A stretch of DNA of 64,000 nt from an uncultured Candidatus Berkelbacteria bacterium (GCA_903851235.1 CAINNR010000032.1:25-64024); one strand, 5' to 3'. Counted from the stretch's first letter, positions 37,338-63,992 are shown. A program made the numbers and translations. The notes: generated by a model not told the origin, from the sequence alone.

Positions 37338-37413
37338 GGGGTCGTAGTGTAGTGGTTATCACGTCTCCCTGTCACGGAGAAGATCGCCGGTTCGAGTCCG
37401 GTCGACCCCGCCA
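37338..37413 (+). tRNA. tRNA-Asp (anticodon GTC). It marks the left boundary of the cassette array.
   Basis: Acceptor ggggtcg/cgacccc, anticodon stem-loop tctcc-ctGTCac-ggaga, T-arm ccggt-tcgagtc-cggt, discriminator g, CCA. A TTGAAT-17-TAAAGT promoter lies upstream. Confidence 0.85.
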
Positions 37414-37476
37414 TTAAAATTAGTCGCTATCAGAGCGTCTTTTTTTGTATCAGGCAGACCGGATGCAGAACTTTTG
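37411..37476 (+). repeat. Boundary element E0: the tRNA-Asp 3' end, its downstream hairpin, T-tract and the right inverted repeat. This is the template that every later boundary element copies.
   Basis: ccattaaaattagtcgctatcagagcgtctttttttgtatcaggcagaccggatgcagaacttttg. Confidence 0.75.
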
Positions 37477-37525
37477 TATTTCTGAATACTAATCAGGTTT
37501 CATTTTATTGCATTGATCTCTAAGT

Positions 37526-38245
37526 TTGGATATTATTGAGGTTATGATAGATGGAATAAAACAGAAATTACTAGATATAAGCCAACCTTGCCCAGAGCGA
37601 GACCGCGTTTTTGTTCTGAAATATTTGGGTACCAACAAAGAATATCTGAACATACCGGCGCCAGCCAGAGATAAAATTATTTCAAAGGTTATTGTCGAAA
37701 CTTCCGATCTTCCGCCAGAAAAGATTATCGAAATTCTAGATGAATTATTTAGTTCCGGGATTTATGACTACATAAATTTTGCGGGAAAATTTCTTTCAAA
37801 AAATAAAACCATTCGCAATTTTATCTCCCTTGATCAGCTTGAAAGTTGGATTGCGCAAACAAAGGGTTGGGCCGAGTGTGATAGTATATGTCAGTCTATG
37901 TTTGGCGGGGTTGAAGTATTAGACCGTTGGAAAGAATGGGCGAGAGCTATCAAAGAGTTTTCCAGTAGCGACAATATTCAAATTCGCAGAGCAAGTCTAG
38001 TTCTGCAAACTCGACCAGCCAGAGAAGTTACTGACTTAAATTTCAGACGGTTGGCATTTATAACCATTGAAAAATTGATGGATGAAAGGGATATTTTAAT
38101 TACTAAAGCAATATCCTGGCTCTTACGAGACCTTTCTATCAAAAACAAAACTGAAGTTAGAAAATTTTTGAAAACAAATCAATCAGTTCTTCCAGCGATT
38201 GCATACCGAGAAACAATGAAGAAGATTGAAACGGGGAAAAAGTAG
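37526..38245 (+). CDS. Cassette 1: DNA alkylation repair enzyme-like (AlkD/AlkC HEAT-like repeat family). Tentative.
   Basis: 239-aa all-helical ORF. Its length and the C-terminal 'ISWLLRDLS...REAMK'-like pattern fit pfam DNA_alkylation. Confidence 0.45.
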   Translation: MDIIEVMIDGIKQKLLDISQPCPERDRVFVLKYLGTNKEYLNIPAPARDKIISKVIVETSDLPPEKIIEILDELFSSGIYDYINFAGKFLSKNKTIRNFISLDQLESWIAQTKGWAECDSICQSMFGGVEVLDRWKEWARAIKEFSSSDNIQIRRASLVLQTRPAREVTDLNFRRLAFITIEKLMDERDILITKAISWLLRDLSIKNKTEVRKFLKTNQSVLPAIAYRETMKKIETGKK

Positions 38246-38273
38246 CGATAACAAAAAACGGCTAGCAATTGAT

Positions 38274-38370
38274 CAAAAAAGTTCTAACATCGTTCGCTAT
38301 TTCCCGCCAGCAAACCGAATGATGTTAGAACTATTCGGTTTAATCGCTCTAGAAGCGATTTTTTTGTTGT
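38274..38370 (+). repeat. Boundary element E1: perfect 11-bp inverted repeats, a tRNA-3' mimic and a terminator.
   Basis: caaaaaaGTTCTAACATC-gttcgctatttcccgcca-...GATGTTAGAAC, then aatcgctctagaagcgattttttt. Confidence 0.8.
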
Positions 38371-38426
38371 GCGCCAGGGCTGAAATAAACTAACTAAACA
38401 TAGAGTTTCAAACAGTCATCGACATA

Positions 38427-38455
38427 TTGACATTTATTAATTAATATGATATTAT
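38427..38455 (+). promoter_or_regulatory. Consensus promoter of cassette 2; leaderless mRNA.
   Basis: TTGACA, 17 nt, TATTAT, with the ATG at 38463 seven nt after the -10. Confidence 0.6.
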
Positions 38456-38462
38456 GCTCATA

Positions 38463-38723
38463 ATGACCACTCAGAAGGAGACTGACATGACACTGCTTGA
38501 GTTCGTGAAGATGTTGGGGACGATCATGATCCGTGCGATCTTTGACGTTGTCCGGCCTCTCTCGCCGATCATCGGCGCGTTGGCCTTGATTGGGTTCGTC
38601 GTCGAGATCGTCCGGCACCATAGTACATCGTGGGAGCTTGCGCTGTCAGCGTTAGCCCTTGGCGCCATGGCTTACCTGACGCGGCGGCCTGAGCTGCGCG
38701 GGTACACAATGTTCCCGAATTGA
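38463..38723 (+). CDS. Cassette 2: small GC-rich membrane protein, hypothetical.
   Basis: MTTQKETDMTLLEF..., two predicted TM helices. Terminator at 38782-38826. Confidence 0.5.
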   Translation: MTTQKETDMTLLEFVKMLGTIMIRAIFDVVRPLSPIIGALALIGFVVEIVRHHSTSWELALSALALGAMAYLTRRPELRGYTMFPN

Positions 38724-38830
38724 CCGCGCCCCCGCTAGGGCAGGTCACAAACCCATCCCCAATACTCTTCAGTTGCGGGGAAGGACCAGAGCAATCAAAA
38801 CATTGATTTTTCTGGTCCTTTTTTAAATCA

Positions 38831-38931
38831 CAATAGTTCTAACGTCATTCGCTATCTCCCGCCATTTAAATTAGTCGCTCTTATAGCGTCTATTTTTTGT
38901 TACGGCAGACCGAATGTAGAACTTTTTATTG
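38831..38931 (+). repeat. Boundary element E2.
   Basis: caatagttctaac...cgctatctcccgccattt...agtcgctcttatagcgtctattttttgttacggcagaccgaatgtagaacttttt. Confidence 0.8.
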
Positions 38932-38982
38932 AGTGTTAACTTTCGAATTAGAATTTTTAACGGTGATGTATCTGAAATCCAG

Positions 38983-39011
38983 TTGACAAACATATTAAAA
39001 GTTGATTATAT
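38983..39011 (+). promoter_or_regulatory. Consensus promoter of cassette 3; leaderless mRNA.
   Basis: TTGACA, 17 nt, TTATAT, with the ATG six nt downstream. Confidence 0.55.
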
Positions 39012-39017
39012 AAGCGT

Positions 39018-39710
39018 ATGCAAGAAAAAGTCTCCAAAATAAAAAAATATTACGACAATCCTGATCAATATCTGGCGGAACATAAGGATTTTTTTTCTAT
39101 CCATAATCCCGAAAAAGATGTGGATTTTTTAATAAAAGTATTGGAAATTGAAAAAAGCGATAATATTCTTGACATAACTTGCGGTCAGGGACGACACACG
39201 ACTGAACTAGCAAAAAGAGGTTATACAGTAAGTGGTGTTGATTTTTCTTCTTCTCTTATTGACGAAGCAAAACAAATAGCTATCGATGCTAATATTAAAT
39301 CACAGTATTATATCCAGAATATCGAGTCACTTAAGTTACCATCAAAGTTTGATATGGCATATTGGTTTTTCTCTGATTTTGCCAACATTGACCTTGCATC
39401 GGCAATAAAATCTATTTCTAATCAGCTCAATCCCGGCGCTAGAGTCCTATTCGATTCAGATAGTCTTTTCCGAATTGTAAGTCATTTGCAAAATAATCCG
39501 GACTCTCCATACAAATTTGACCCAAAGTTACTTCAGTTAATAGACAATTCTCTCGGTCTTAGCATCCCTTATCCAACTTTCCTTATGTGGCAAGATTGGT
39601 TGAACAAAAATGAACTTGAGATTATTAATGTTTGGGGAAATTACGATCTCTCATCTTATGATATTAAAAGTCCTCGTCTGATCATTTTAGCTAATAAAAA
39701 AGCTGCTTAA
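39018..39710 (+). CDS. Cassette 3: class I SAM-dependent methyltransferase.
   Basis: Motif I 'ILDITCGQGRHTTELAKRGYTVSGVDFS'. Confidence 0.75.
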   Translation: MQEKVSKIKKYYDNPDQYLAEHKDFFSIHNPEKDVDFLIKVLEIEKSDNILDITCGQGRHTTELAKRGYTVSGVDFSSSLIDEAKQIAIDANIKSQYYIQNIESLKLPSKFDMAYWFFSDFANIDLASAIKSISNQLNPGARVLFDSDSLFRIVSHLQNNPDSPYKFDPKLLQLIDNSLGLSIPYPTFLMWQDWLNKNELEIINVWGNYDLSSYDIKSPRLIILANKKAA

Positions 39711-39744
39711 GTCAGAATCGACCTAAACAGCTTGTAGTTCTCCG

Positions 39745-41175
39745 CTATGCCGAGGTGGCATGGGAATTGATCGTGTCATAGAGATTGTCGACCTTGCACT
39801 TGAAGAGGCCGGGGTCCTCTGTTAGTATCCACATCAGCTCAAGTACAGAGTCATGGATCTCCTCGCACTTGAAATGAGGCGAACGCAGGTCTCTCGTGGT
39901 CTGATAGTTCTCTCCTCGACAGTTGCCGGCACAGATATACCTGATATCGCAAGCCGCGCATTTTGGATTCATACTATCGATGTTCAGACTGCGAAGATCC
40001 GTCAGAATGGGGGATCCCTTCCAGATCTCAGCCAAACTATCGGTTTTCAGATTGCCCAGGCAGAAATCGGGGACCGCAGTATCGGCGCATGGGTACAGTG
40101 TGCCGTCCGGTTTAACGTAAACCGCTCGATTCGTACCGATTCCACAGCCGAAGCTTTTGACGCCTCCTGCGATTCCCATCACTTGGTTTGCGAAGGTCGA
40201 GTACATCATCAACTGCTGAAGTCGCTGATCATCTCGTATTGCTTCGAAAACCTTCCGGTAGAAATCCGCCAAAGGGACAGCAACGAGTTGTTGCTTCGTT
40301 TCGGCGCTGTTGCCTCGGCCTACATTCATCATGTTTAAACAGTTAAGGCCTTGGACTCCAAGAGAATCGACCAACTTGAGTGTTGGTCGGACCTCATCGA
40401 TATTGCCTGCGTGAATAAACATGTTGACGGCAACTGAGATCCCTGCGTCGCACAGTGCCTTGATGTTGTTGACTGTTGTAGTGAATGTTCCCTCTCCACG
40501 GATGTATTCGTGGCTCTCAGCCCGACATCCGTCAAGGGAAATCGACATTTTCAGCCGGGGATATTTCGCCAGTTGTTTGATATCTGCTGGCGCCAACAGA
40601 GTCGCATTGGTGTTCACTTGAGCGAAATAGCCATGGTTGTGAACATATTCAATCAGATCCATGGCATCGGGGCGGGTAAACAGCTCACCGCCGGTTAGGG
40701 CAACGCGCGATATGCCGTTTTCCCAGGGCATACTCGAAAGTTGATCGATAACTGCTTTGATTTCGACAGAAGTCATCTCGCCGGGGATCTTCTCTTTGGC
40801 CATGGCATAACACATTGCGCATTCCATGTTGCAGAGTTGAGTTGTGGCGATAACCAAGACATTTTCGACTTCATTGACTTGGAAATCCGGCTTATTCTCT
40901 TCGACATCAACCTTCTCACCATCTACTACCAGCACTCCAGCGGAGTGCAGCAGATCGATAGTTTCAGCGACGATGTCGCCAGCCTCCTCTGCTGAGAGTC
41001 CCAATTGGGTTCTGATCTTAGTGACAGCCACATCAGAGTTTCCACAAGCCAACGACTCAAGGATGAGGGCAATCTCCGCCGTTGCAGAGAACCAGTAGGG
41101 TGCTGAGGGAAAGATCACGACTGCTGATTCTTCCCTGAAATAGACCGATGGTTTTTCGGTGAATGCCAACTGCAT
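39745..41175 (-). CDS. Cassette 4: radical SAM enzyme with a C-terminal SPASM domain and a ~110-aa N-terminal extension (a possible RiPP recognition element). Likely a peptide-modifying maturase. GC-rich.
   Basis: 'CNMECAMC' (CxxxCxxC) and C-terminal 'CAACDIRYICAGNCRGENY'. RBS GGGAGA lies before ATG at 41175. Confidence 0.8.
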   Translation of the reverse strand: MQLAFTEKPSVYFREESAVVIFPSAPYWFSATAEIALILESLACGNSDVAVTKIRTQLGLSAEEAGDIVAETIDLLHSAGVLVVDGEKVDVEENKPDFQVNEVENVLVIATTQLCNMECAMCYAMAKEKIPGEMTSVEIKAVIDQLSSMPWENGISRVALTGGELFTRPDAMDLIEYVHNHGYFAQVNTNATLLAPADIKQLAKYPRLKMSISLDGCRAESHEYIRGEGTFTTTVNNIKALCDAGISVAVNMFIHAGNIDEVRPTLKLVDSLGVQGLNCLNMMNVGRGNSAETKQQLVAVPLADFYRKVFEAIRDDQRLQQLMMYSTFANQVMGIAGGVKSFGCGIGTNRAVYVKPDGTLYPCADTAVPDFCLGNLKTDSLAEIWKGSPILTDLRSLNIDSMNPKCAACDIRYICAGNCRGENYQTTRDLRSPHFKCEEIHDSVLELMWILTEDPGLFKCKVDNLYDTINSHATSA

Positions 41176-41198
41176 TTCGGTCTCCCTTCAAAAAAGAT

Positions 41199-41226
41199 CA
41201 GTGAGGCGCGCTCGCGCGCCTCACTG
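41199..41226 (-). terminator. Attenuator/terminator hairpin between the precursor peptide gene and the maturase.
   Basis: Perfect 12-bp stem cagtgaggcgcg-cgag-cgcgcctcactg followed by a U-tract on the minus strand. Confidence 0.6.
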
Positions 41227-41239
41227 TTGTTACGTGGAG

Positions 41240-41332
41240 CTACTGGCCCCGGTAGTACATCGTCCCTTGTGACTCCTTAGTCAAGACGACGATACGACGA
41301 TTGCCACGGTTCAAAATCCGAAACTTCCGCAT
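41240..41332 (-). CDS. 30-aa candidate RiPP precursor peptide (MRKFRILNRGNRRIVVLTKESQGTMYYRGQ). It is not in the supplied ORF track.
   Basis: A strong SD (AGGAGGagcgtcATG) and a TTGACA promoter on the minus strand at ~41408. It lies directly upstream of the radical-SAM/SPASM gene and is separated from it by an attenuator hairpin. Confidence 0.55.
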   Translation of the reverse strand: MRKFRILNRGNRRIVVLTKESQGTMYYRGQ

Positions 41333-41478
41333 GACGCTCCTCCTGTCAGATGGTGTAAGCTGTCGAAACAGCTTCACTATTATTATTAACATACTTTTTT
41401 TACTTTTGTCAACAGCATCGAGTAAATCTGATAACTTTATGAGGATATTTTTATTAATTTTTATGCTAAAATTTGATT

Positions 41479-42153
41479 ATGAATTGGAAAATTTATAAAA
41501 CACAACATTATACTTTTCACTACTTCTCAGGAACTTTGGCAGAAAAGGAAATTGAGAAAATAGCGGATGAACAGGAAGCGTTTTATCGTCATATTTTGTC
41601 GTAACTAAATTTGAAAAATGAGCGTACCATAAACTATTTTTTATATCCAGCGAATCAACTAAAGGGTGAAATAATGGGCGATGATGGTAATGGCAATACT
41701 AATCGAGAAAAATTTGAAGTCTACGCTGTCTACAATGAAAATATAAAATGTATTGGTGCGCATGAAGATACTCATCTCCTATCTCTTCCATTGGGATTGG
41801 CAACTAAACTATTTCGAGAAGGCCTGGCAGAGTTTATGAGTAAAGAATGACATGGAAAAACTCATGATTTTTGGGCTAAAAAATTTCTGAGTGAAAAAAA
41901 GATTCCTGGACTAGCGAAAATTTTAGATGATAAAGAGGGGGATAAAATCAGCGACTTAATTTCTTATCCTTGCGCCGGCTCTTTTTACATATTTTTAATA
42001 TCTAAAATTGGTAAAGGTATTTTTTTAAAACTTTATGGAGCCCTAGACCGAAATATAAATGTTGAAATAAACTTAGTAACAATTAAAGATATCACAAGTA
42101 AATCTTTAGACCAGTGGCAAAAAGAATGGGCAGAAAAAGTGTTGTACCAGTAA
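41479..42153 (+). pseudogene. Cassette 5: decayed gene. One continuous frame is interrupted by TAA (41602-41604) and TGA (41848-41850).
   Basis: My translation reads MNWKIYKTQHYTFHYFSGTLAEKEIEKIADEQEAFYRHILS*LNLKNERTINYF...AEFMSKE*HGKTHDFWAKKF...KVLYQ* in a single frame. No boundary element separates it from cassette 4. Confidence 0.5.
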
Positions 42154-42200
42154 AATATCTGCCTCTTGTTCATCAACTAGTCCAACCTTAGGGAGCCATA

Positions 42201-42297
42201 CAAAAAGTTCTAACTTCCCCCGCTGTGTTCCGCCATTGAAAAAGTCTCTCTGGAAGAGATTATTTTTGTATACGGCAGACTGGATATAGAACTTTTG
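42201..42297 (+). repeat. Boundary element E5.
   Basis: caaaaagttctaacttcccccgctgtgttccgccattgaaaaagtctctctggaagagattatttttgtatacggcagactggatatagaacttttg. Confidence 0.8.
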
Positions 42298-42414
42298 TTT
42301 TTAAACGTAAAACTTCGGATTGGATTTGAAACGAAATGTATGGGCTATTGTCCAAGAGGTCGTCATCATGTACAGATGTTTGACAAAACTGTTGATTGCC
42401 AATAGACTTAGACT

Positions 42415-42756
42415 ATGAAAACAATCGAAGACAAAATAAGTATCAAAGATTTGCAGGAGATGGCAGAAAAGATGTTCGGCAATTTGGTTAAAGCGGTAAT
42501 TGACATAGAGAAAGAGGCGATGGTCGTTGACGCCGAGCTTTATTCAGACGAGGAAGCGGTTCTAATTGAAAACGGATCAAAACAAAAAGATCTTTGGGGA
42601 ATAAATATCTATCCAAATTTACCCAAAGCCGACCAAATTGAATTTGATTCAATGATTAATTTGCGACCAAAACAGAACAACAGAAGCCGGAGTGTTGATG
42701 ATCCAAAAATCAGAGAAATAATACTAAAAATTTGTGATAAATTAATCAAACAATGA
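42415..42756 (+). CDS. Cassette 6a: hypothetical protein, first gene of a two-gene cassette; leaderless.
   Basis: 113 aa. TTGACA-17-TAGACT promoter with the ATG six nt after the -10. Confidence 0.5.
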   Translation: MKTIEDKISIKDLQEMAEKMFGNLVKAVIDIEKEAMVVDAELYSDEEAVLIENGSKQKDLWGINIYPNLPKADQIEFDSMINLRPKQNNRSRSVDDPKIREIILKICDKLIKQ

Positions 42757-43082
42757 CATATGAACATCAAAATTTGGCCGAAGGCAAGTGGAATAAAATT
42801 CCATTTTTTGAGCAGATGGCTAATATCGGAAGTGAGGTTTTTCGCACAATCAGTTGGAAGAAAAAAAACATTGATTATTCAAATAAAGCTTTTGACAGAA
42901 CTCTCGAACTACTGGATATGACGATTGAAGATTCTAAAAATCGAGGACGACTAAAAGAATTAGTTCGTTTGCGTGAAGTCCTGACCGATTATTTTGTCTT
43001 TGACAATGAGTACAAATCAAATGATGAATTATGGCAGAAGTATTTTTACGCGTTCAATTATGTCGCTAGAATAAATTGTTAG
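42753..43082 (+). CDS. Cassette 6b: hypothetical protein, start overlapping 6a (ATGA).
   Basis: 109 aa, translationally coupled to 6a. Confidence 0.5.
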   Translation: MTYEHQNLAEGKWNKIPFFEQMANIGSEVFRTISWKKKNIDYSNKAFDRTLELLDMTIEDSKNRGRLKELVRLREVLTDYFVFDNEYKSNDELWQKYFYAFNYVARINC

Positions 43083-43083
43083 A

Positions 43084-43150
43084 CAAAAAGTTCTAAATTT
43101 AATCGGCGCTCTAAATCTCCGCCAATGAAAAAGTTAGTCCAGTGCTAGTT
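43084..43150 (+). repeat. Degenerate boundary element E6 (left half only).
   Basis: aaaaagttctaaatt...cgctctaaatctccgccaatgaaaaagttagtccagtgctagttttttt. Confidence 0.5.
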
Positions 43151-43216
43151 TTTTTGCGTACTAAAATAGTATATTCTAATTATCTTTTAGCAAATTGTCC
43201 CTGTCCAAAGTGGTAT

Positions 43217-43888
43217 TGTAGATATATGAAATTATTTTTATCACTAGCTCTGATTGCTTTGCTAACAATAGCTGTCTATTTTTGTTTAACCAAAAAACCT
43301 AGCGATAAAAAATACAATAATATATCCAGAAAAAAAGCTATTATGATATCCGCAACAATATGCATTATTCTGGTTGGAACACTGGCTTATTTAATGTATA
43401 AATCGGCGACAGCTCCAGATATGCAATGTACTACAGTTCACACAACTTCACTGATGCCACCAAAGTCTCTGGCTAGTGCTATGGATTATTACCTTCAGGG
43501 CAATTATGATTATGAAACCGGAAATTGTCAGAAAGCGATTGTTAATTTTAATGCCTCAATTCAACTTGATCCGAATTATCCACAAGCATATAACAACCGG
43601 GCATACACTTTTATGCGAATGCAAAATTATAAAGACGCATTATCAGATCTAGACAAAGCCATTGCCCTCAATCCAAATTATATCAACGCCTTAATGAACA
43701 GGGGCGACATTCACAATTATTACTATGCGATTGATCGCAAAAGCTCGACTGAGGACTACGAAAAAGTAATTTCCCTGGGCGGTGAAAAAGATACAAGCGT
43801 GTGTGGACATCTACTTTTGGCGAAACATGATGGCTGGAATTTGGGCACTCTTTTAGCTCTTCACCAAACTTTGTACAGTTGCAATTAA
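43217..43888 (+). CDS. Cassette 7: membrane-anchored TPR-repeat protein.
   Basis: N-terminal TM (MKLFLSLALIALLTIAVYF), then tandem TPRs (AIVNFNASIQLDPNYPQAYNNRAYTFMRMQNYKDALSDLDKAIALNPNYINALMNRG). Confidence 0.65.
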   Translation, partial: CRYMKLFLSLALIALLTIAVYFCLTKKPSDKKYNNISRKKAIMISATICIILVGTLAYLMYKSATAPDMQCTTVHTTSLMPPKSLASAMDYYLQGNYDYETGNCQKAIVNFNASIQLDPNYPQAYNNRAYTFMRMQNYKDALSDLDKAIALNPNYINALMNRGDIHNYYYAIDRKSSTEDYEKVISLGGEKDTSVCGHLLLAKHDGWNLGTLLALHQTLYSCN

Positions 43889-43911
43889 CTTGTGCACTCA
43901 TCATAAAATAA

Positions 43912-44060
43912 ACTGGTTCTGACATCATCCGCTATACCTCGCCATTTTGCCCGGGTCTAGCGGAGGGCGTTAGAACCGGAGGAATAATCGCTTTCAGAGC
44001 GGTTATTTTTGTTTTTACAAGTACAAAATTATTTCACAAAATAGATGTTAGAACTAAAAA
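43912..44060 (+). repeat. Boundary element E7: an extended form with two right-IR copies.
   Basis: ggttctgacatcatccgctatacctcgccatttt...gcgttagaacc...aatcgctttcagagcggttattttt...atagatgttagaact. Confidence 0.7.
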
Positions 44061-44094
44061 AGTGTTTCCGAGCTCTTGAATCATTGCGCGGCTG

Positions 44095-44123
44095 TTGACA
44101 TGTGAATGTATTTATGATAAACT
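44095..44123 (+). promoter_or_regulatory. Promoter of cassette 8.
   Basis: TTGACA, 17 nt, TAAACT. Confidence 0.45.
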
Positions 44124-44161
44124 AATTGAAGTTTTCACCAACCCAGAAAGAGTGATGCCAC

Positions 44162-44503: not shown

Positions 44504-44574
44504 CCAGTCACCAATTCTGCTTCTTTCACACTCGCCCCTTGATCGGGGCCTTTTTTAATTCAAATTTCCATTAC

Positions 44575-57731: not shown

Positions 57732-57857
57732 AGAGCCAGATATCGATCTCAACAACGGCAAAAATTGGGCACTTAATTTAAAAGTTACAGATGTTGGCAA
57801 TGGTTTTGCTGGGCTCCAGTAATTAAACTATTAATTCTTCTGACCGGAAGATCAGAA

Positions 57858-57925
57858 AAGGTCTAAACTTCAATCGCTATGCTCCTCCATAATATAAAAT
57901 AGCCGTTTGGGCTTTTTTGTTTAGT
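57858..57925 (+). repeat. Boundary element E22 (degenerate right half).
   Basis: ggtctaaacttcaatcgctatgctcctccataatataaaatagccgtttgggcttttttgtttag. Confidence 0.6.
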
Positions 57926-57981
57926 TTCAGTTTTGTCCTGTGCTACAATGTAATTAAGAATAACTATTATCGGAGGGCGGA

Positions 57982-60516
57982 ATGTCTATGTTTTGGTTTG
58001 TGTTGCCGATTTTTGCTCTACTAGTAGCTATAGTCCGCAAGGATTTGCGCTTCCAAATGTTTTTGGCCGCCGTACTTTCAATTCCGATATTGATAATTAA
58101 ACCCCTAACCGATCCGAATTTTTTGCAAATAATAGCCGGTCTCGATCTAATAATTTTCTTTGCTGCTAGATTAATTATTGTTGCCTCATTTGCAGCCCTG
58201 GCGGCTGCGGTTTATGAACTATTTTTTCATAATAAAATTTCTCCTGTCCCGCACTCACAACGACCACGACTGCTCTGGTTGCTGAGTGGTCTTTTGTTCT
58301 TGGCTATATTGCTACTTTTGGGTCAAAGCTTTATTGTCGCTATTTTGGCGGCACTTTTGGTTGATCTGATAATAGTGATAATACTGCGCCCCGGTTTGAT
58401 TTGGGATGTCATCTTCTCCGGATTTTTCATGGGGTTTTTATATCTTTTTATTTATTTAATTGCATTTCGCGGTTTCCCCGGCGGACTAAATAATATTTGG
58501 TTTACGGATAGACTTTCCGGTCTAACGCTTTGGTCGCTGCCGGTTGAGGAGCTTCTGGCTGTGGTTTTGTTTGGTGCACTCGTTGGTCCGCTCTACACTG
58601 CAATTAAAACTTTAAAACTGCCAACTAAAATTATCCCATCAGAAGTCTCCGAAAAGAAGCTTGCAAATCCTAAAGTTATTTTTGGTTGGTTGATAATAGT
58701 TTTTTCTTTGCTTGCAATTTTGTTTGGGGCTTATTATTTTGTGATTCCACCGAAGGTCTCTACTTCAACGCCAAAAAATAGTACTTCCAGTGTTGGTTTG
58801 GTTGATGACATCGGTCTTAAATTCAACAAACCAATAAATCGTGATGTCATAAATTTTTCAATTCTACCAGACGTTTCCGGAGTCTGGCATTTTTCCAACG
58901 GAACATTGGCTAATCATTTATTTAGCCAAGCAAATTTTACGCCGGACAAACCACTTGCGGCAGAACAAGAATATACGATTAAAGTCACTAATATCCGTAA
59001 TTTAATCAATACTTCTTCCGGTGCCGATTTTCAATTTTCTTTCCGAACTGAGAGTTTGCCGAAAATCGATCATGCATCAATTGCCGATGGACAAACTGGT
59101 GTGATGCTAAATGATCCGATTAATATTTATTTGAGTCAGAAAAATAATAAAGTCGTAGATTTTAATTTCAAATTTGATCCAGCCGTTGATTTTACACCGT
59201 CAATTTCGGCTGATGGAATGCAGTATACTCTAAAATTAAACCAGCCGCTGACTCAAGGCGCAGTTTACAAATTAACGACGCTTGGTTGGATTTTGCCTGG
59301 TGCTGGAAATCCGGCCCCAGACGCTAATTGGCAAATGGCTTTTACCACAAAAGAGCCGCCAGCGCTTGCCAGTTACACCCCTCAAGGCAGTGGAATTTTG
59401 ACTGACAGTGGAAATATCACTTTGAATTTTGTTCAACCAATGGTTCAAGATGATGTATTGGGTCATATTTCAATTACTCCGGAGATAAAAGGCAGTTGGA
59501 AATGGCAGACTTCGACGAAACTGGTTTACAGCATCAACCAAAAATTATCGTTTGCTACCGGATACACAATTTTAATTGCTAAAGGTGTCCACGATCAATC
59601 GGGCGGTTTTATTGATAATGATATCAAAGCCACTTTTACTACTATCGGGAGTGTTCAAGTCAGTATTTTTTCGCCGAAAAACGCTGGTAGTAATGTCGCT
59701 ACCGATGCAAAAATATCAATTACTTTTGATCAGGCAGTTGACCACGGTTCAGCCGAGCGTGCTTTTTCAGTTTCACCGACTCTAAGTGGCAATTTTTCTT
59801 GGAGCGGTAATAAGATGATTTTTTCTCCCGATGGATTAAAGAAAGATTCGACTTACAATATCAATCTCGCGGCCGGCATCAAAAGTATCTCCGGTCTTGA
59901 TTCGAACAAAATCTTTTCCGCCAGTTTTTCCACTATTACCAGTTCTATTATTCTAAATATTGGAATTGATTATCAGGACCAGGCGCTTTCCTGCGAAGCG
60001 GCGTCGCTGAAAATGGCACTGAACTACCGTGGTGTCGGCGTGACTGAAAACGATATCATGGCTCGAATCGGTTACGACCCAACAATCCGAAATGGCAACA
60101 TTTGGGGTAATCCGAATAATGCTTTTGTCGGCAGTATTAACGGTCGGCAAGATACTACCGGCTATGGTGTTTACTGGCAGCCGATTGCCAGGGCTGCAAA
60201 TGTTTGGCGATCGGCAATTGCTTTTTCCGGCTGGTCGCCAAGCCAAATTGCCGGAGCGATCGCCGACAATAATCCGGTTATTTTGTGGGGAACTTACGGC
60301 AACGCTTCGCGTGATGATTGGCAAACGCCGGACGGCCAGCATATTCTCGCTTGGAAGGGAGAACATGCCAGAACAATTATCGGTTTTTTGGGCACAGCTG
60401 ACAACCCTACTAGCTTTGTTATCAATGATCCTGTCGCCGGACGAATAACCTGGACCGCTGCCCAACTTGCCGGTAACATGTCAGCTTTCGCTGGTAGCGG
60501 AGTCGTAGTTTATTGA
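57982..60516 (+). CDS. Large membrane protein: an N-terminal polytopic domain, bacterial Ig-like repeats and a C-terminal C39-like (Peptidase_C39_2) domain.
   Basis: 844 aa. Repeated Big-like '...S.S..I.I.F...V' segments. The C-terminal 'YQDQALSCEAASLKMALNYRGVGVTENDIMARIGYD' carries a catalytic Cys context. An extended -10 (TGcTACAAT) lies upstream. Confidence 0.6.
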   Translation: MSMFWFVLPIFALLVAIVRKDLRFQMFLAAVLSIPILIIKPLTDPNFLQIIAGLDLIIFFAARLIIVASFAALAAAVYELFFHNKISPVPHSQRPRLLWLLSGLLFLAILLLLGQSFIVAILAALLVDLIIVIILRPGLIWDVIFSGFFMGFLYLFIYLIAFRGFPGGLNNIWFTDRLSGLTLWSLPVEELLAVVLFGALVGPLYTAIKTLKLPTKIIPSEVSEKKLANPKVIFGWLIIVFSLLAILFGAYYFVIPPKVSTSTPKNSTSSVGLVDDIGLKFNKPINRDVINFSILPDVSGVWHFSNGTLANHLFSQANFTPDKPLAAEQEYTIKVTNIRNLINTSSGADFQFSFRTESLPKIDHASIADGQTGVMLNDPINIYLSQKNNKVVDFNFKFDPAVDFTPSISADGMQYTLKLNQPLTQGAVYKLTTLGWILPGAGNPAPDANWQMAFTTKEPPALASYTPQGSGILTDSGNITLNFVQPMVQDDVLGHISITPEIKGSWKWQTSTKLVYSINQKLSFATGYTILIAKGVHDQSGGFIDNDIKATFTTIGSVQVSIFSPKNAGSNVATDAKISITFDQAVDHGSAERAFSVSPTLSGNFSWSGNKMIFSPDGLKKDSTYNINLAAGIKSISGLDSNKIFSASFSTITSSIILNIGIDYQDQALSCEAASLKMALNYRGVGVTENDIMARIGYDPTIRNGNIWGNPNNAFVGSINGRQDTTGYGVYWQPIARAANVWRSAIAFSGWSPSQIAGAIADNNPVILWGTYGNASRDDWQTPDGQHILAWKGEHARTIIGFLGTADNPTSFVINDPVAGRITWTAAQLAGNMSAFAGSGVVVY

Positions 60517-61400
60517 CACCAATATTAATTTATAGTACAGTAAGGATTAAGCAAATCAATCAAAAAAAACAAATGGATAATAACGATAATTCTATTGGGA
60601 GAGAAGAAATCAAAACTTTTGGCGATTATTATTACCGGCCAAAAGCTAAACGCAATTCCTGGTTGAAAATTACCGGGCTGATTTTGCTTGTCGCAATTTT
60701 TCTTGGCGCTGGTTACTATGGGTATCGTCGTTGGCGTTCAAATAGATTAACAGAGAATAACTCCATTGTCGATGTTCCGGTGATAGAAAAGCCAGCCATT
60801 GTCTCGCCGTCAAATCCGGTTATCACACCAGCGGCAATTCCGGCTTCCGGTATGCTTATCGTACCATTTACGACTCAAGCGCCGTTTGCCAATTGGGATG
60901 CCACACACGAGGAGGCTTGTGAAGAAGCCAGTTTAATTATGCTTCATCATTATCAAAACGGAACTGCGATTGACTCCCCAACTTCGGCCGACAAAGAGAT
61001 TTTGGATTTAATCAGTTGGGAAACCGATAATGGTTATGGTGTTGATGTTACACTTGAACAACTTTCTGATATTGCCAGACGGTATTATGGTATGAGCAGT
61101 GGCCGAATTATTACCGATGTTACTACCGACACGATCAAAAAGGAGATCTCGGCCGGTCATCCGATAATTATACCGGCTGCGGGAAAAATCCTGCCGAATC
61201 CGAATTTCCGCGATGGCGGTCCAAACTATCACATGCTGGTTATAATCGGATATAATCAAACAGACTTTATCACCAACGATCCCGGTACCAGAAATGGCCA
61301 AAATTTTCACTATACTTACGATGGTCTCTTAAATGCTGTCCATGATTGGAACCCTGACAATATTCTTAACGGTCCAAAAGAACTCCTAGTTTTTGACTGA
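60513..61400 (+). CDS. Membrane-anchored C39-like peptidase domain protein.
   Basis: 'FTTQAPFANWDATHEEACEEASLIMLHHY' (Cys) ... 'HMLVIIGYN...DP' (His). The start may be ATG at 60573. Confidence 0.6.
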   Translation: MTPILIYSTVRIKQINQKKQMDNNDNSIGREEIKTFGDYYYRPKAKRNSWLKITGLILLVAIFLGAGYYGYRRWRSNRLTENNSIVDVPVIEKPAIVSPSNPVITPAAIPASGMLIVPFTTQAPFANWDATHEEACEEASLIMLHHYQNGTAIDSPTSADKEILDLISWETDNGYGVDVTLEQLSDIARRYYGMSSGRIITDVTTDTIKKEISAGHPIIIPAAGKILPNPNFRDGGPNYHMLVIIGYNQTDFITNDPGTRNGQNFHYTYDGLLNAVHDWNPDNILNGPKELLVFD

Positions 61401-61576
61401 AAATAGTATAATTGGTTATTTTTCGCAATAGTTTTAACTAAAGATTGTGATCAGTGCCCATTTAGAATTATATTAAGGCAAAGTTAGTTTGGAGATTGTT
61501 CGCCACTCCTCATCCCTAGAACATTAATATATTCTCTGCTCGGCGAGAATTGAAAAATATCTGCTACAATTAAACA

Positions 61577-62098
61577 ATGAAGAAAAAACTGCCACATAAA
61601 TTGGATGTCGGTTGCGCTTTCAGAAAACCTAAAGGTTATTGGGGAATCGATAAAGTCAAAGTTAAAGACGTTGATCAGTTTATTGACTTGTCCAAATTTC
61701 CTTGGCCGCTACCGGATAACCATTTTGAGGAAATCAGGGTTTGGCATATTTTACAATTTCTTCCGGATACGGTAAAAACAATGGAGGAAATTTGGCGGAT
61801 CGCTAAATCGGGGGCAAAAATAACGATTGGCGTTCCATATTATATGTCTGCATTGGCTTTTGGTGATCCAGCACACATTCGATATTTTACCGAAGAAACT
61901 TTCAAATTTTTTACCGATGATTCCTGGTATATTTCAAATCACAGCGCATATACTGTTGCAAAATTCAAAATTATCAAACAGAAATTGCGTACCACCGGCC
62001 GTTTACGCCGATTTTTACCTTTTAAGAGGTTCTTACGTTTTTTTGTTTGGAATTTGGTTGATGAACTGGTTATTGAGATGGAAGTAGAGAAACATTGA
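61577..62098 (+). CDS. Class I SAM-dependent methyltransferase-like protein.
   Basis: 'LDVGCAFRKPKGYWGIDK' (motif I) and 'GAKITIGVP'. Confidence 0.55.
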   Translation: MKKKLPHKLDVGCAFRKPKGYWGIDKVKVKDVDQFIDLSKFPWPLPDNHFEEIRVWHILQFLPDTVKTMEEIWRIAKSGAKITIGVPYYMSALAFGDPAHIRYFTEETFKFFTDDSWYISNHSAYTVAKFKIIKQKLRTTGRLRRFLPFKRFLRFFVWNLVDELVIEMEVEKH

Positions 62099-62117
62099 CG
62101 ATATAATAAGTTTTAAT

Positions 62118-62200
62118 TTTGTTCCGCTCTGCCCCATCAATAAAAAAGTAGCTCTGGTAGCTATTTTTTCTTTACAGCAGACAGGGTATAGAACTTTTGT
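62118..62200 (+). repeat. Boundary element E25.
   Basis: tttgttccgctctgccccatcaataaaaaagtagctctggtagctattttttctttacagcagacagggtatagaacttttg. Confidence 0.75.
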
Positions 62201-62231
62201 CTTCCTAGGTTGTTGAAGCGTAGCGAAACTA

Positions 62232-62260
62232 TTGACAAAAAATATATATTATGTTAGCAT
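62232..62260 (+). promoter_or_regulatory. Promoter of cassette 26.
   Basis: aactaTTGACA, 17 nt, TAGCAT. The leader has an SD (gAGAAGGAGcgatcgacgATG). Confidence 0.5.
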
Positions 62261-62294
62261 TTGGATATCCCGCCGTGAGAAGGAGCGATCGACG

Positions 62295-62708
62295 ATGCTG
62301 ACCAAGAAAGCAGTTGTATCAGCAGTAGTTTTACCGTTTCTTTCGATTGTACTGTCTCTGATTGTGGAATTTCTCGCCTGGTTCGTTTGGAGAGTTCTTC
62401 TTTCTAGGCCATTTGAATTTCTTTCTGTTTGGAAATGGTTCTACATCGACACACTAATCGTTTGTTTAAGTTTTGAAATTCTTCTTGTCGCAGCCTGTTA
62501 TATTACCTTCACCATCTACGCTAAGAAGTGGGATGTCAGTTACAAAGAAGCTGAAAAAGCTTTCTTGAAATATAATATCATTCAGAATTGTCCAGCAGAA
62601 GAAGGAATAAAATCATGGAAGGAATGGACAGCTGAAGACTACCATCTCCAAATGACCATCAGAGGAGTTGCGGAGGCGATGGTTGATCGAATTTTTGGGA
62701 ACCTTTGA
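62295..62708 (+). CDS. Cassette 26: membrane protein, hypothetical.
   Basis: The ATG after the SD gives MLTKKAVVSAVVLPFLSIVLSL... The track's 62232 start would overlap the promoter. Terminator at 62727-62757. Confidence 0.5.
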   Translation: MLTKKAVVSAVVLPFLSIVLSLIVEFLAWFVWRVLLSRPFEFLSVWKWFYIDTLIVCLSFEILLVAACYITFTIYAKKWDVSYKEAEKAFLKYNIIQNCPAEEGIKSWKEWTAEDYHLQMTIRGVAEAMVDRIFGNL

Positions 62709-62794
62709 TTTGACTCACAGAAACGTATACTGCCTTGCTTAAGGCAGTATTTTTTTGTCGGGGAACCTACCAATTAACCCGGTTATAAGCTTCC

Positions 62795-62873
62795 CCTACT
62801 GCGCTTTGCTATTGAATTTTATTTTCTTCTAGAGCGTCTTTTTTTGTGTCTGGCAGACTGGATGCAAAACTTT
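62795..62873 (+). repeat. Boundary element E26.
   Basis: ctactgcgctttgctattgaattttattttcttctagagcgtctttttttgtgtctggcagactggatgcaaaacttttt. Confidence 0.7.
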
Positions 62874-62889
62874 TTCTTTTCCTAAACTA

Positions 62890-62918
62890 TTGACATGCTA
62901 GGCACTTTTTGTTATAGT
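62890..62918 (+). promoter_or_regulatory. Second copy of the perfect-consensus promoter (see 48137-48165).
   Basis: aactaTTGACA-tgctaggcactttttgt-TATAGT-gatttgcgaagac. Confidence 0.7.
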
Positions 62919-63016
62919 GATTTGCGAAGACGAACACCAACACGGGAGGCTTGAAAATGCCATTGGCAAAAGGACTTATAACTAAGCGTGGTGGCTCGCC
63001 GGTATCAGTATAAGAA

Positions 63017-63229
63017 GTGATCGATGCCTTAAGAGAGGCATACGACATTGAATCCGTTGAACTTCTCCCTTCGGGAGCGACACTTGTCACGACATCTGTC
63101 GGTAGCATTGTTGCCCATACAGCCGTCGTTATGGTGCCTCAAGAGCCAGGATGGCTGGCACACGCTGAACCCTGCGTCTTGGAAAGGGATATGAGATTCT
63201 TGGCCTTCATAGATGAGGTTGGGCGATAA
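63017..63229 (+). CDS. Cassette 27: GC-rich hypothetical protein, preceded by an 18-codon uORF (62957-63013).
   Basis: 70 aa. An SD (GGGAGG) serves the uORF MPLAKGLITKRGGSPVSV*, whose stop sits 3 nt before the GTG/ATG of the main ORF. Terminator gggccgtcag-taat-ctgacggcc-tttttt at 63241-63269. Confidence 0.45.
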   Translation: MIDALREAYDIESVELLPSGATLVTTSVGSIVAHTAVVMVPQEPGWLAHAEPCVLERDMRFLAFIDEVGR

Positions 63230-63445
63230 CAGTACCCGATATGTGCATCAGGGCCGTCAGTAATCTGACGGCCTTTTTTAATTACCAGTAAACCCCGCAC
63301 GAAAGCGTGCGTCGCGGCCGTAAGTTTAGTCGCTGAAGTGCGGGGATGAATGGCGTATTGAACGCAAGCTTGTCTTGCGCGTGGCGGAGCCAAGAAAACC
63401 CGGAATTAACGAAGTGGTTTCCGGGGAGGACGTCATTTAATTTTA

Positions 63446-63548
63446 AAAAGTCGGATATAAAAGTTCTCATTTCTTTCCTTTGACCTGTTAACCAAATAAT
63501 CTTATAGAAGAGACTATTTTTCTGGCAAAGCGGATATAAAACTTTTTG
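63446..63548 (+). repeat. Boundary element E27.
   Basis: aaaagttctcatttctttcctttgacctgttaaccaaataatcttatagaagagactatttttctggcaaagcggatataaaactttttg. Confidence 0.65.
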
Positions 63549-63671
63549 CCTTCCCAAACTATCGAAATATAATCTTGAGGTGATATTGACATTTATATAA
63601 ATTTGTGATACGGTGGCATCAGCATGCAGTCGTTGATATCAGAAGGCAGGATAAAGGGAGGCGACTAGCGG

Positions 63672-63992
63672 ATGGAGGATCTCTTGGGCAAACACATCTT
63701 TACCATAAGGGAGCGTACCAAGCCCGGGACCGGCCATTTCGGCCAATTCAGTCCGACCAGGCAGTATGAATATGCTGTTGTCAGGTGCCTGGTCACCAGT
63801 CAAAATGGCGATCAGGTGGGACTCTTGGCAGATGGGAACAATAACCCCGAGTTGGACAACAAAACTGGTTGGAGATTAACATCTGGCCTCATCCTCATGC
63901 CCGGAACAAACACTATCCGGGTTGAGGAAGTTCACGGCTCTGACGGCCTGGGTCTGATTGGTATTTGGAAGGAGCGCGGCGCTACCGACTGA
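63672..63992 (+). CDS. Cassette 28: GC-rich hypothetical protein.
   Basis: 106 aa. SD GGGAGGcgactagcggATG. It ends with TGA at the window edge. Confidence 0.5.
   Translation: MEDLLGKHIFTIRERTKPGTGHFGQFSPTRQYEYAVVRCLVTSQNGDQVGLLADGNNNPELDNKTGWRLTSGLILMPGTNTIRVEEVHGSDGLGLIGIWKERGATD

Follow-up and report, generated by a model that had tools for sequence, protein, structure and literature searches.

A tRNA-Asp-anchored, integron-like array of small gene units in an uncultivated Candidatus Berkelbacteria bacterium

Downstream of a tRNA-Asp gene, the genome of an uncultivated Candidatus Berkelbacteria (CPR) bacterium holds a series of at least 19 small gene units, each self-contained, with a conserved element of about 100 bases, derived from a tRNA, between one unit and the next. 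The array runs beyond the window, the stretch of 64,000 nucleotides analysed here, with the next element ~60–130 nt past base 64000. We consider it probable, with moderate confidence, that this is an integron-like gene-capture array that uses a different, tRNA-derived site and a putative unlinked recombinase. The array is not a canonical integron, and in the literature searched we found no account of such an array. A sequence-only reading of the window had proposed a tandem array of ~25 cassettes after tRNA-Asp. The array itself was borne out, as was its character as a co-oriented series of unrelated, compositionally heterogeneous accessory units, and the count is corrected to ~19–20 units in the window (Table 1).

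Table 1. Features of the array in window coordinates.
Feature	Coordinates	Strand	Description
tRNA-Asp (GTC)	37338..37413	+	array head; ARAGORN; Rfam tRNA, 68.9 bits
Site 0	37383..37477	+	tRNA T-arm + acceptor 3′ end, CCA, terminator hairpin, right arm
Unit 1	37478..38275	+	DNA alkylation repair protein (PF08713)
Element 2	38276..38366	+	type B; left core 38281-38309; right arm GATGTTAGAAC, ends at 38331; terminator after right arm
Unit 2	38367..38830	+	promoter 38427-38455; small GC-rich membrane ORF (GC3 0.76)
Element 3	38831..38927	+	type A, full length
Unit 3	38928..42201	mixed	candidate RiPP module: methyltransferase (+), rSAM-SPASM (−, 39745-41175), small ORFs
Element 4	42202..42299	+	type A
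Unit 4	42300..43084	+	promoter 42380-42408; DUF5674 protein; 109-aa ORF
Element 5	43085..43160	+	degenerate: left arm, CCGCCA, hairpin
Unit 5	43161..43913	+	TPR protein
Element 6	43914..44014	+	type B
Unit 6	44015..44573	+	promoter 44095-44123; 113-aa ORF (GC3 0.55)
Element 7	44574..44672	+	type A
Unit 7	44673..45495	+	promoter 44710-44738; 190-nt leader; 176-aa GC-rich orfan
Hammerhead	45496..45552	+	type III-like, directly 5′ of element 8; Rfam RF00008, 40.6 bits, E 1e-5; covariation
Element 8	45557..45654	+	type A
Unit 8	45655..46161	+	108-aa GC-rich ORF (GC3 0.73)
Element 9	46162..46232	+	degenerate left arm + terminator hairpin
Unit 9	46233..46837	+	flavodoxin-like protein
Element 10	46838..46903	+	left core + bidirectional terminator hairpin; without right arm
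Unit 10	46904..47454	−	DUF1801 gene (46957-47370, −) between two + elements
Element 11	47455..47543	+	type B-like; inner stem CTCCACTA/TAGTGGAG
Unit 11	47544..47963	+	promoter 47610-47638; 77-aa membrane ORF (GC3 0.64)
Hammerhead	47964..48020	+	type III-like, 5′ of element 12; Rfam RF00008; covariation
Element 12	48024..48116	+	type A; degenerate left core
Unit 12	48117..48759	+	promoter 48138-48166; GC-rich ORF, ~168 aa (GC3 0.71)
Hammerhead	48760..48816	+	type III-like, 5′ of element 13; Rfam RF00008; covariation
Element 13	48820..48920	+	type A
Unit 13	48921..49355	+	promoter 48951-48979; 77-aa ORF
Element 14	49356..49400	+	degenerate left arm
Unit 14	49401..50560	+	small membrane proteins (Transgly_assoc, YGGT)
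Element 15	50561..50645	+	type A; degenerate left arm
Unit 15	50646..57855	+	polysaccharide module: UDP-glucose dehydrogenase, GT2, heparinase II/III plus deacetylase, 275-aa ORF
Element 16	57856..57915	+	degenerate
Unit 16	57916..62109	+	Big_5/C39-like 844-aa protein; C39-like 295-aa protein; left-arm remnant at 61426; 173-aa methyltransferase-like gene 61577-62098
Element 17	62110..62203	+	type A; degenerate left core
Unit 17	62204..62787	+	137-aa membrane protein (62295-62708)
Element 18	62788..62876	+	right half mainly
Unit 18	62877..63459	+	promoter + leader, then 70-aa ORF
Element 19	63460..63550	+	degenerate
Unit 19	63551..64000	+	106-aa GC-rich ORF (63672-63992)

Six copies of the element served to build an nhmmer profile, with which a search of the window returned 19 in-register copies; every one is on the + strand and lies after position 37400, and the minus-strand matches were palindromic shadows of these same copies. 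The profile found no copy in the preceding 37 kb (1–37337) and none in ~35 other intergenic regions of the window. The first copy is the tRNA-Asp 3′ end itself with its downstream flank, in agreement with the earlier proposal that the element derives from a tRNA 3′ end, and the tRNA terminus ...GTCCGGTCGACCCCGCCA is the prototype of the CCGCCA core of the elements. What stays invariant is a left core of 29 nt, GTTCTAAC-N6-CGCTRT-N3-YCCGCCA, which terminates in the tRNA’s own 3′ end (CCGCCA). Across 19 loci, 31 in-register copies of this core contain no indels, and the information content falls to about zero directly after the CCA. Alignment end-points among elements cluster at −29, 0 (the CCA) and +60 to +68. 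The hallmark of the copies is this core and not the paired terminal inverted repeats that had been put forward: the motifs quoted in that reading are enriched in the window (CAAAAGTTCTAAC, 15 matches with up to two mismatches versus 2.8 expected; GGCAGACCGGATG, 10 versus 0.8), but only about half of the copies have both repeats.

Beyond the CCA, many copies carry a terminator hairpin, a right arm that reads as the antisense of the tRNA T-arm (CAGACCGGATGCAGAAC in site 0) and a strong promoter. From its 5′ end, a unit would run from terminator hairpin, right arm and promoter through the payload ORF(s) to an optional type III hammerhead ribozyme and the 29-nt left core. When folded, the elements form long hairpins with imperfect stems (z = −2.3 to −6.5). 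Pairing of the left and right arms across the CCA, with compensatory changes, is seen in type B copies; element 2 forms a perfect 17-bp hairpin with the CCA in its loop and no extrahelical bases. This pairing is awkward for a capture array if the crossover separates the arms. The right arm of type A copies sits 3′ of the terminator, and their arm pairing therefore cannot be an RNA feature.

Strong σ70-like promoters (10–11 of 12 consensus matches) follow most elements on the + strand, as the sequence-only reading had claimed, and units of 0.4–1 kb are complete expression units with their own, intact promoter and terminator. Its two inverted cassettes, rSAM-SPASM and DUF1801, were recovered, and element orientation is independent of gene orientation. 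The reported alternation in GC content was also confirmed: GC3 of the cassette ORFs is bimodal, with values of 0.28–0.38 in some and 0.54–0.76 in others, compared to 0.32–0.49 in core genes (n = 6). For the one cassette ORF searched, the 176-aa ORF of unit 7, a set of 5.8 billion proteins yielded no homologue. Units 12 and 18 share a promoter and leader at 94% identity, and the downstream ORFs are unrelated. This common block stops abruptly ~13 nt after the −10 box, which indicates junctions other than the CCA and speaks against a capture array.

Rfam yielded only tRNA and Hammerhead_3 as family matches here. Type III hammerheads precede seven element copies, three in the window and four in relatives, with scores of 30–41 bits that lie below the RF00008 gathering score of 48.5. 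Their CUGAUGA...GAAA core and C-U-C cleavage triplet are invariant, stem III has 3–4 bp, and stem II shows compensatory changes among the seven copies. Core, cleavage triplet and covarying stem II are shared with the small short-stem-III variants of RF00008; what differs is the fixed position at the 3′ ends of bacterial gene units, directly 5′ of a putative recombination site, for which no description was found in the literature searched. One could ask whether the element is simply a static transcriptional punctuation module of hammerhead, 3′-end structure, terminator and promoter, spread by local duplication in a variable region with no DNA mobility. Each full copy does contain an intrinsic terminator with a consensus promoter after it, hammerhead and left core lie in the transcribed 3′ UTR, and the population is clonal. 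However, element orientation stays fixed even beside inverted genes, ~35 other intergenic regions of the window lack the element, the arm pairing of type A copies cannot belong to an RNA, and cross-species indels are located at the element. We regard this explanation as very unlikely.

The element is also present in ~17 other metagenomic loci. A tRNA is in view next to the elements in eight independent loci (the window, L048, L058, L063, L066, L072, L074 and L075), and in every one it is a co-oriented tRNA-Asp that lies upstream of them. Confinement to one strand, one locus and the same tRNA linkage disposes of a dispersed REP/MITE. Clean 16–18-nt direct repeats of the locus’s own tRNA-Asp 3′ end occur in L048, L051, L063, L072 and L074. 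Flanks are syntenic among related Berkelbacteria, and almost no cassette genes are common to different loci; element 6 is 85% identical over 104 nt to positions 2204–2307 of L050, with unrelated flanking genes. Differences at the level of single cassettes were seen between relatives: L058 and L048, whose core DNA is 87% identical, differ by one unit, which in L058 lies between the tRNA CCCGCCA and an element ending in CCCGCCA. L048 and L051 have the unit adjoining rsmH in common and differ between that unit and the tRNA. Within the population, all contigs from several samples are collinear and 99–100% identical and show no sign of ongoing excision or insertion, so that recent mobility gains no support, and this collinearity also weighs against a capture array. 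No circular junction was seen.

Could homologous recombination alone have shaped the array, with RecA acting on inter-ORF modules of 100–250 nt as anchors after DNA uptake by competent CPR cells, and no dedicated recombinase? The left core-to-promoter module is 75–87% identical across species, the window encodes RuvABC and L051 a ComEC-like competence protein, and the block of units 12 and 18 does not end at the CCA. The junction of the unit common to L048 and L051 is not pinned: strong identity begins near the RBS, and a weaker resemblance reaches back as far as the T-tract and promoter. Such recombination does not account for the stop of conservation exactly at the CCA in 31 copies, for the strict anchoring to tRNA-Asp in eight loci, for direct repeats that reproduce the tRNA 3′ end exactly, or for how foreign GC-rich ORFs first acquired flanking modules, and we consider it unlikely. 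The 173-aa cassette gene is homologous in the window and L050 as far as the ORF ends and no further, and more distant Patescibacteria carry it among housekeeping genes, with no elements close by; both observations count against a capture array.

The absence of an integrase from the window, noted earlier, was confirmed, as window ORFs of at least 150 aa had no match to tyrosine or serine recombinase or transposase families. No recombinase is annotated within ±10 kb in L048, L050 and L051, and none was found among ten ORFs of 203–483 aa from related loci, a result that goes against a capture array and would suit homologous recombination. Transfer RNA 3′ ends are classical integration sites. The array might be a graveyard of tRNA-Asp-targeting elements, each once with its own integrase and deleted down to one or a few genes and an attachment-site remnant. 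The direct repeats in relatives would fit, as would the generally more degenerate distal copies in the window. Yet no integrase gene or fragment was matched in the at least 19 units here or in six related arrays examined, promoters and terminators are intact, and the left core, accompanied by a conserved hammerhead, is strongly constrained across species and is not decaying; such an origin is quite improbable. As in tandem accretion of tRNA-targeting elements and islands, the array is anchored at the 3′ end of an intact tRNA, that end is directly repeated, and the newest insertion is expected beside the tRNA. In contrast, its units, of 0.4–7 kb, lack integrase, excisionase and other mobility genes, at least 19 stand in series, and the repeated site has only ~7–8 nt in common with the tRNA, with conserved arms of its own.

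In layout the array resembles sedentary chromosomal integrons with homogeneous attC sites (e.g. Vibrio VCRs) and CALINs. All have long co-oriented arrays of small, mostly single-gene, unrelated units, many orfan or compositionally foreign, whose content differs between relatives, and a lineage-specific, imperfectly palindromic site of 60–105 nt with AAC/GTT-type terminal boxes at unit ends. Here, however, the array starts at a tRNA gene and not at attI/intI, a tRNA-3′-end-like core of 29 nt is the invariant part, conservation has its boundary at the CCA of that core and not at an R′ box, sites carry an intrinsic terminator and some a hammerhead, every unit has its own promoter, no IntI was found, and the host belongs to the CPR. 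The sites had been described as homogeneous, hairpin-forming and non-canonical as attC, which our analysis supports. A true CALIN with unusual attC sites and an IntI encoded elsewhere would be in keeping with the co-oriented sites at unit 3′ ends, the significant hairpins and the mutually complementary boxes TTCTAAC ... GTTAGAA, each matching RYYYAAC / GTTRRRY at six of seven positions. Most copies (type A), though, have G-TAGAAC in place of GTTRRRY, the stem of element 2 lacks extrahelical bases, and the 29-nt segment is unlike attC. We judge this reading highly improbable. Of the integron signature originally proposed, the functional likeness stands, and membership of the integron family fails, since neither intI nor attI was found and the cassettes have their own promoters.

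Two other systems are comparable. Xer-dependent pdif modules of Acinetobacter plasmids are likewise small, with conserved sites and a recombinase (here putative) encoded outside the module, but pdif sites are 28-bp, dif-like and of alternating orientation, unlike the ~100-nt, singly oriented, tRNA-derived element. The DUF1874 RNA/ssDNA motif (Weinberg et al. 2017, PMC5737381), which its authors put forward as a possible unusual attC, is likewise conserved and structured and recurs in consecutive intergenic regions, and its arrays have no integrase at their head; its sequence and structure differ, and tRNA anchoring was not reported for it.

In a gene-capture array, a site-specific recombinase with its gene elsewhere in the genome would act on a free cassette, presumably a circular intermediate, whose left-core/CCGCCA site would recombine with the tRNA-Asp 3′ end, probably with crossover at CCGCCA or just after. 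The tRNA would stay intact, the newest unit would adjoin it, and each older junction would become a full left-core/CCA/right-half element. The hammerhead may, as one possible role, release the mRNA from the structured site by cleavage. The array is confined to its tRNA locus in a single orientation with a sharp boundary of conservation at the CCA; its site is conserved across species, its gene content differs among relatives, and many of its payloads are of foreign composition. ‘Integron-like’ would fit such an array as an analogy of function.

An intact tRNA-Asp(GTC) gene, identified with ARAGORN and Rfam, stands at the head of the array. Run over the window, a profile derived from six repeat copies returned 19 in-register element copies, all on the + strand and all after position 37400, and none in the first 37.3 kb with its approximately 35 intergenic regions. 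The first of these copies consists of the tRNA gene's own 3′ end and the downstream flank, and overlapping metagenome contigs place a further element just past base 64000. Nineteen elements imply about 19 units in the window, so that the sequence-only reading, with about 25 cassettes, had over-counted; the two motifs it had singled out are enriched (15 matches versus 2.8 expected, and 10 versus 0.8). Comparison of the array with itself showed direct repeats only, restricted to the spaces between ORFs, and no paralogous ORFs within the array. In relatives, element copies are likewise confined to one strand and one locus. A dispersed REP or MITE repeat was ruled out, since all 19 copies lie on one strand and at one locus in the single contig examined; the genome-wide repeat that the earlier reading had named as its refuting case was thus not encountered, the elements being bound to the tRNA locus in the window and in relatives alike.

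When the copies were aligned on the CCA, the invariant part proved to be a left core of 29 nt, GTTCTAAC-N6-CGCTRT-N3-YCCGCCA, usually preceded by a run of A residues. Its 31 copies from 19 loci are all in register with zero indels, and the information content is close to zero from the first base after the CCA. The last 7-8 nt of the core correspond to the acceptor end, discriminator and CCA of tRNA-Asp. A tRNA-like minihelix was considered for this core and rejected, as the complement to the acceptor-like TTTCCCG was not found upstream. On the right side, type A copies carry an intrinsic-terminator hairpin followed by the right arm GGCAGACCGRATGYAGAAC and often by AACTATTGACA-N17-TATAAT; the arm, antisense to the tRNA T-arm GTTCGAGTCCGGTC, pairs with the left box as well. 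Type B copies have a right arm GTTAGAAC that lies ahead of the terminator and completes a long hairpin whose loop contains the CCA. Many copies from relatives have unrelated sequence on the right side. Strong promoters on the + strand (10-11 of 12 matches) follow most elements. Alignment end-points between elements fall into clusters at -29, 0 (the CCA), +60 to +68 and the hammerhead start, and a test of independence between left and right halves gave a Mantel r of 0.24 (p = 0.07).

Three relatives (L048, L050 and L051) were found through RsmH, whose closest named homologues have identities of 59-66% and are annotated as Candidatus Berkelbacteria or Patescibacteria; the identical RsmH is encoded on a contig of 64,299 bp, of which the window makes up essentially all. 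In the three relatives, elements or exact repeats of the tRNA 3′ end lie between tRNA-Asp, or the contig edge, and rsmH. Metagenomes searched with a degenerate form of the left core gave 24 loci, of which about 17 are real, being low-GC contigs with profile matches. At every locus where a tRNA is visible (the window, L048, L058, L063, L066, L072, which is identical to L065, L074 and L075), it is tRNA-Asp, located upstream of the elements on the same strand, and exact direct repeats of 16-18 nt of the locus's own tRNA 3′ end occur in L048, L051, L063, L072 and L074. Between species, the elements are 75-87% identical over about 100 nt and RsmH 51-68%, which argues that the site is either constrained or exchanged. 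The genes downstream of tRNA-Asp are almost never common to loci; the flanks are syntenic and include genes for a Ser-hydrolase, a bestrophin-like and a Band_7 protein as well as rsmH, dnaJ and dnaK. The core DNA of L058 and L048 is 87% identical, and L058 has one additional unit with a transglutaminase-like gene, inserted between the CCCGCCA of the tRNA and an element ending in CCCGCCA; an inverted, GC-rich unit common to both loci follows. L048 and L051 have the rsmH-adjacent unit in common and differ between that unit and the tRNA. The one-unit difference between L058 and L048 is of the kind proposed at the outset as a sign of mobility, namely gain or loss of cassettes exactly at element junctions; no such difference was found within the window's population.

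Other differences concern the surroundings of the array. The tRNA-Asp gene and array are inverted relative to the flanking core genes between lineages, and L072 and L074 show the same difference in orientation relative to tRNA-Gly and tRNA-Thr. A conserved, GC-rich insert of about 130 nt separates tRNA-Asp from the exact 3′-end repeat in L051 and L063; the region is 81% identical over 280 nt between the two species, contains several hairpins and has no Rfam match. Possible identities are a small structured RNA and a mini-cassette. Two paralogous membrane/coiled-coil proteins (38% identical; no Pfam or PDB match) are encoded together with a 166-aa ORF between dnaJ and rsmH in the window; in L048 and L051 these paralogous genes are absent and dnaJ abuts rsmH. 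The first 4 kb of the window have a higher GC content of 0.45-0.50, contain ORFs without family match and carry no elements.

Coordinates of the features discussed in the text
Feature	Locus	Position (strand)	Remark
tRNA-Asp(GTC)	window	37338-37413 (+)	
Element copy	window	38275-38337	perfect 17-bp stem
Type B elements	window	38276, 43914, 47455	
Type B element	L050	2204	
Type III hammerhead-like motifs (Rfam)	window	45496-45552, 47964-48020, 48760-48816	each directly before an element
Hammerhead-like motif	L055	71-128 (-)	
Hammerhead-like motif	L073	1031-1089 (-)	
Hammerhead-like motif	L076	4551-4609 (-)	
Hammerhead-like motif	L076	3197-3255 (-)	no element detected beside motif
Promoter-plus-leader block	window	48133-48179, 62885-62931	94% identical
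Block from right arm through promoter to ~13 nt into leader	window	48081-48179, 62839-62931	common to two units
173-aa methyltransferase-like gene	window	61577-62098	
173-aa methyltransferase-like gene	L050	3302-3823	
rSAM-SPASM region	window	39745-42190	
Short ORF upstream of rSAM-SPASM (example)	window	41240-41392 (-)	
Array orientation	window	36329-37413	tRNA points away from adjacent rsmH
Array orientation	L048	7805-10912	array runs toward rsmH
Array orientation	L050		array runs toward rsmH
Array orientation	L051	6625-10909	array runs toward rsmH
GC-rich insert	L051	6745-6862	
GC-rich insert	L063	5406-5560 (-)	
Paralogous membrane/coiled-coil genes	window	34692-35453 (-), 35543-36235 (-)	
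Segment of higher GC	window	1-4000	
ORFs without family match	window	93-671, 760-1236, 2225-3223 (-)	
Divergence from window	L041	9241-9389	versus window 52883 onward

According to Pfam, the payload genes have unrelated, accessory functions. They encode a DNA-alkylation repair protein, methyltransferases, an rSAM-SPASM protein (minus strand), DUF5674, a TPR protein, a flavodoxin-like protein, DUF1801 (minus strand), small membrane proteins, a four-gene polysaccharide module and Big_5/C39-like proteins. The GC3 values of the cassette ORFs are bimodal, with 0.28-0.38 for some and 0.54-0.76 for others; six core genes range from 0.32 to 0.49. Three traits seen from the sequence alone, namely unrelated accessory functions, alternating GC content and two inverted cassettes (rSAM-SPASM and DUF1801), are all confirmed here. 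Both inverted genes are flanked by elements in + orientation, and the orientation of the element therefore tracks the array and not the gene. A GC-rich ORF of 176 aa has no homologue among 5.8 billion proteins, and PDB and Pfam likewise offered nothing meaningful for three uncharacterised proteins that lie nearest the array head or lack a family. Upstream of the rSAM-SPASM gene are short ORFs over about 1 kb, and the region, with a GC content of 0.51 versus 0.34 in the neighbouring methyltransferase, may encode a RiPP maturase with its precursor peptides.

Two units share a block that runs from the right arm through the promoter into the leader. The block stops abruptly about 13 nt past the -10 box, at GCGAAGAC, with unrelated ORFs beyond, and its end resembles a discrete boundary at which backbone meets payload. 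The gene for a 173-aa methyltransferase-like protein is present both in the window and in L050, and the homology between the two ends at the ORF ends. Payloads thus appear to be attached abruptly, at either side, to a conserved backbone. Homologues of the 173-aa gene (56-89% identity) occur in many Patescibacteria metagenomes (such as loci L081-L083). In more distant Patescibacteria the gene is surrounded by genes of glycolysis and translation, or neighbours a pyruvate:ferredoxin oxidoreductase cluster, and has no elements close by; in L082 and L083 the homologue lies between the genes for GAPDH and triose-phosphate isomerase, again away from any element. The gene is therefore embedded in the core in some lineages and array-borne in others.

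Type III hammerhead-like motifs, absent from the sequence-only reading, occur three times in the window (Rfam E values of 1e-5 to 2e-3, under the gathering score) and four times in related loci. All seven have bit scores of 30-41, below the gathering score of 48.5 for RF00008; the CUGAUGA...GAAA core and the CUC cleavage triplet of this family are invariant in each. Stem II exists in two fully compensatory versions, with two pairs covarying among the seven copies, and stem III has only 3-4 bp. Six of the seven motifs are located directly 5′ of an element's left arm. A separate terminator between stop codon and ribozyme was not found in unit 7, which carries the 176-aa orfan, so that its mRNA must run on across hammerhead and left core as far as the hairpin that follows the CCA.

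A recombinase was sought in the window and in related loci. No recombinase family matched any window ORF of at least 150 aa, in agreement with the initial impression that the window holds no integrase. None is annotated within 10 kb on either side of rsmH in L048, L050 and L051, none was found among ten ORFs of 203-483 aa from related loci, and none appeared among the best 25 families listed in a pooled Pfam scan of 79 related-locus ORFs. Scans of viral contigs with the right arm and with the left core gave zero matches and thus no evidence for a phage carrier. In species-representative genomes, a set that does not include the source genome, the right-arm pattern gave 29 single matches in unrelated taxa; by our own estimate about 17 are expected by chance, and we take these matches to be at chance level. 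Elements that target tRNA genes insert at the 3′ end and leave a distal direct repeat, and the array is similar in that CCGCCA ends every left core and exact repeats are present in relatives. Such elements, however, carry an integrase, usually next to the tRNA, and other mobility genes, whereas neither was matched among the window ORFs and the ten related-locus ORFs.

Integrons, including CALINs (cassette clusters without linked integrase), are the other system that invites comparison. The terminal R″ and R′ boxes of attC are complementary to each other. The left box TTCTAAC agrees with the attC R″ consensus RYYYAAC at six of seven positions in nearly all copies. The right box GTTAGAA agrees equally well with R′ (GTTRRRY) in type B copies only; in type A copies the terminator is followed by G-TAGAAC, and a right box is missing from many relatives' copies. 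Folded as single-stranded DNA, the elements form long imperfect hairpins (z of -2.3 to -6.5). An attC hairpin has an unpaired central spacer and conserved extrahelical bases. The hairpins of the array are significant, but one copy is a perfect 17-bp stem and no conserved bulged base was seen across copies. In an informal hand tally for the folding strand, arm-pairing mismatches comprised about five G-T versus three A-C. Integron cassettes are mostly promoterless and rely on Pc at attI, whereas the units of the array have their own promoters and a tRNA gene at their head; intI, which lies next to an integron array or, for a CALIN, elsewhere in the genome, was not found in the ORFs and intervals searched. 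Membership of the integron family therefore fails on the lack of intI and attI, the units' own promoters, the approximate or right-missing boxes and the tRNA-derived invariant core. By analogy, the array is nevertheless functionally integron-like. The closest published concept is the DUF1874 motif, which its authors suggested might be an unusual kind of attC (Weinberg et al. 2017, PMC5737381). Full-text searches of the literature brought up neither tRNA-anchored cassette arrays nor hammerheads in CPR bacteria.

Seventeen short contigs and one 9.4-kb contig of the window's population, from several samples, are collinear with the window and 99-100% identical. They effectively represent one strain, so that mobility is neither shown nor excluded by them. 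The 9.4-kb contig (L041), which comes from another sample, matches the window exactly over 9.2 kb and then diverges completely inside the GT2 glycosyltransferase gene, not at an element; either the polysaccharide module varies between strains or the assembly is chimeric. Eight independent assemblies of the population, including the source contig and the tails of L001-L007, break off 170-300 nt beyond the window, shortly into the next unit, whose start reads ...AAGGAGTCTACCTATGCAAAATTGTTTC. Their common end point suggests a repeat or a strain-level branch there. Neither the end of the array nor an integrase was found in these 170-300 nt.

The reading with the best support is that the array captures genes and arose through site-specific recombination at the tRNA-Asp 3′ end. 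In this reading, the crossover takes place at or just after CCGCCA, catalysed by a recombinase presumably encoded elsewhere in the genome, and with every further insertion at the tRNA the preceding junction would become a complete site of left core, CCA and right half. The full-length type A elements match the expected look of such older junctions. Type B copies would fit a crossover between the arms poorly, because their arms pair across the CCA with compensatory changes. Four rival readings, namely a static module of terminator and promoter, homologous exchange between conserved modules that follows DNA uptake, decayed islands that once bore integrases, and a true CALIN, each account for part of the data, but none of the four covers the tRNA-Asp anchoring, the single orientation, the CCA boundary and the cross-species conservation of the site together. 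With a confidence that falls a little short of even, we propose that this CPR clade (Berkelbacteria) possesses a gene-capture system that has not been described before and does not derive from integrons, in which self-contained expression units dock at the tRNA-Asp 3′ end through a new or re-purposed, unlinked recombinase. The conserved cassette backbone of such a system would comprise about 200-250 nt with the hammerhead, the tRNA-like left core ending in CCA, the terminator, the antisense T-arm and the promoter. In a more radical form of the proposal, cassettes would be made or moved by way of an RNA step, of which the hammerhead and the tRNA-like, CCA-ending core are the marks. With considerable probability, the array is set further apart from cassette arrays at a recombination hot spot by its recombinase, its ribozyme or both.

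The genomes of CPR bacteria (Patescibacteria) are tiny and streamlined, and the routes by which accessory genes reach them are little understood. A dedicated, conserved hot spot behind tRNA-Asp, at which insulated expression units are stacked, would, if true, represent a second, independently evolved solution to the problem that integrons solve, and the first described in this large bacterial branch. With payloads of foreign composition joined abruptly at either side to a host-like backbone, and a ribozyme at the junction, the genesis of cassettes, a long-standing question, would become directly testable in a new system. The 29-nt core offers a simple probe with which such arrays, and their largely orfan payloads, may be mined from metagenomes.
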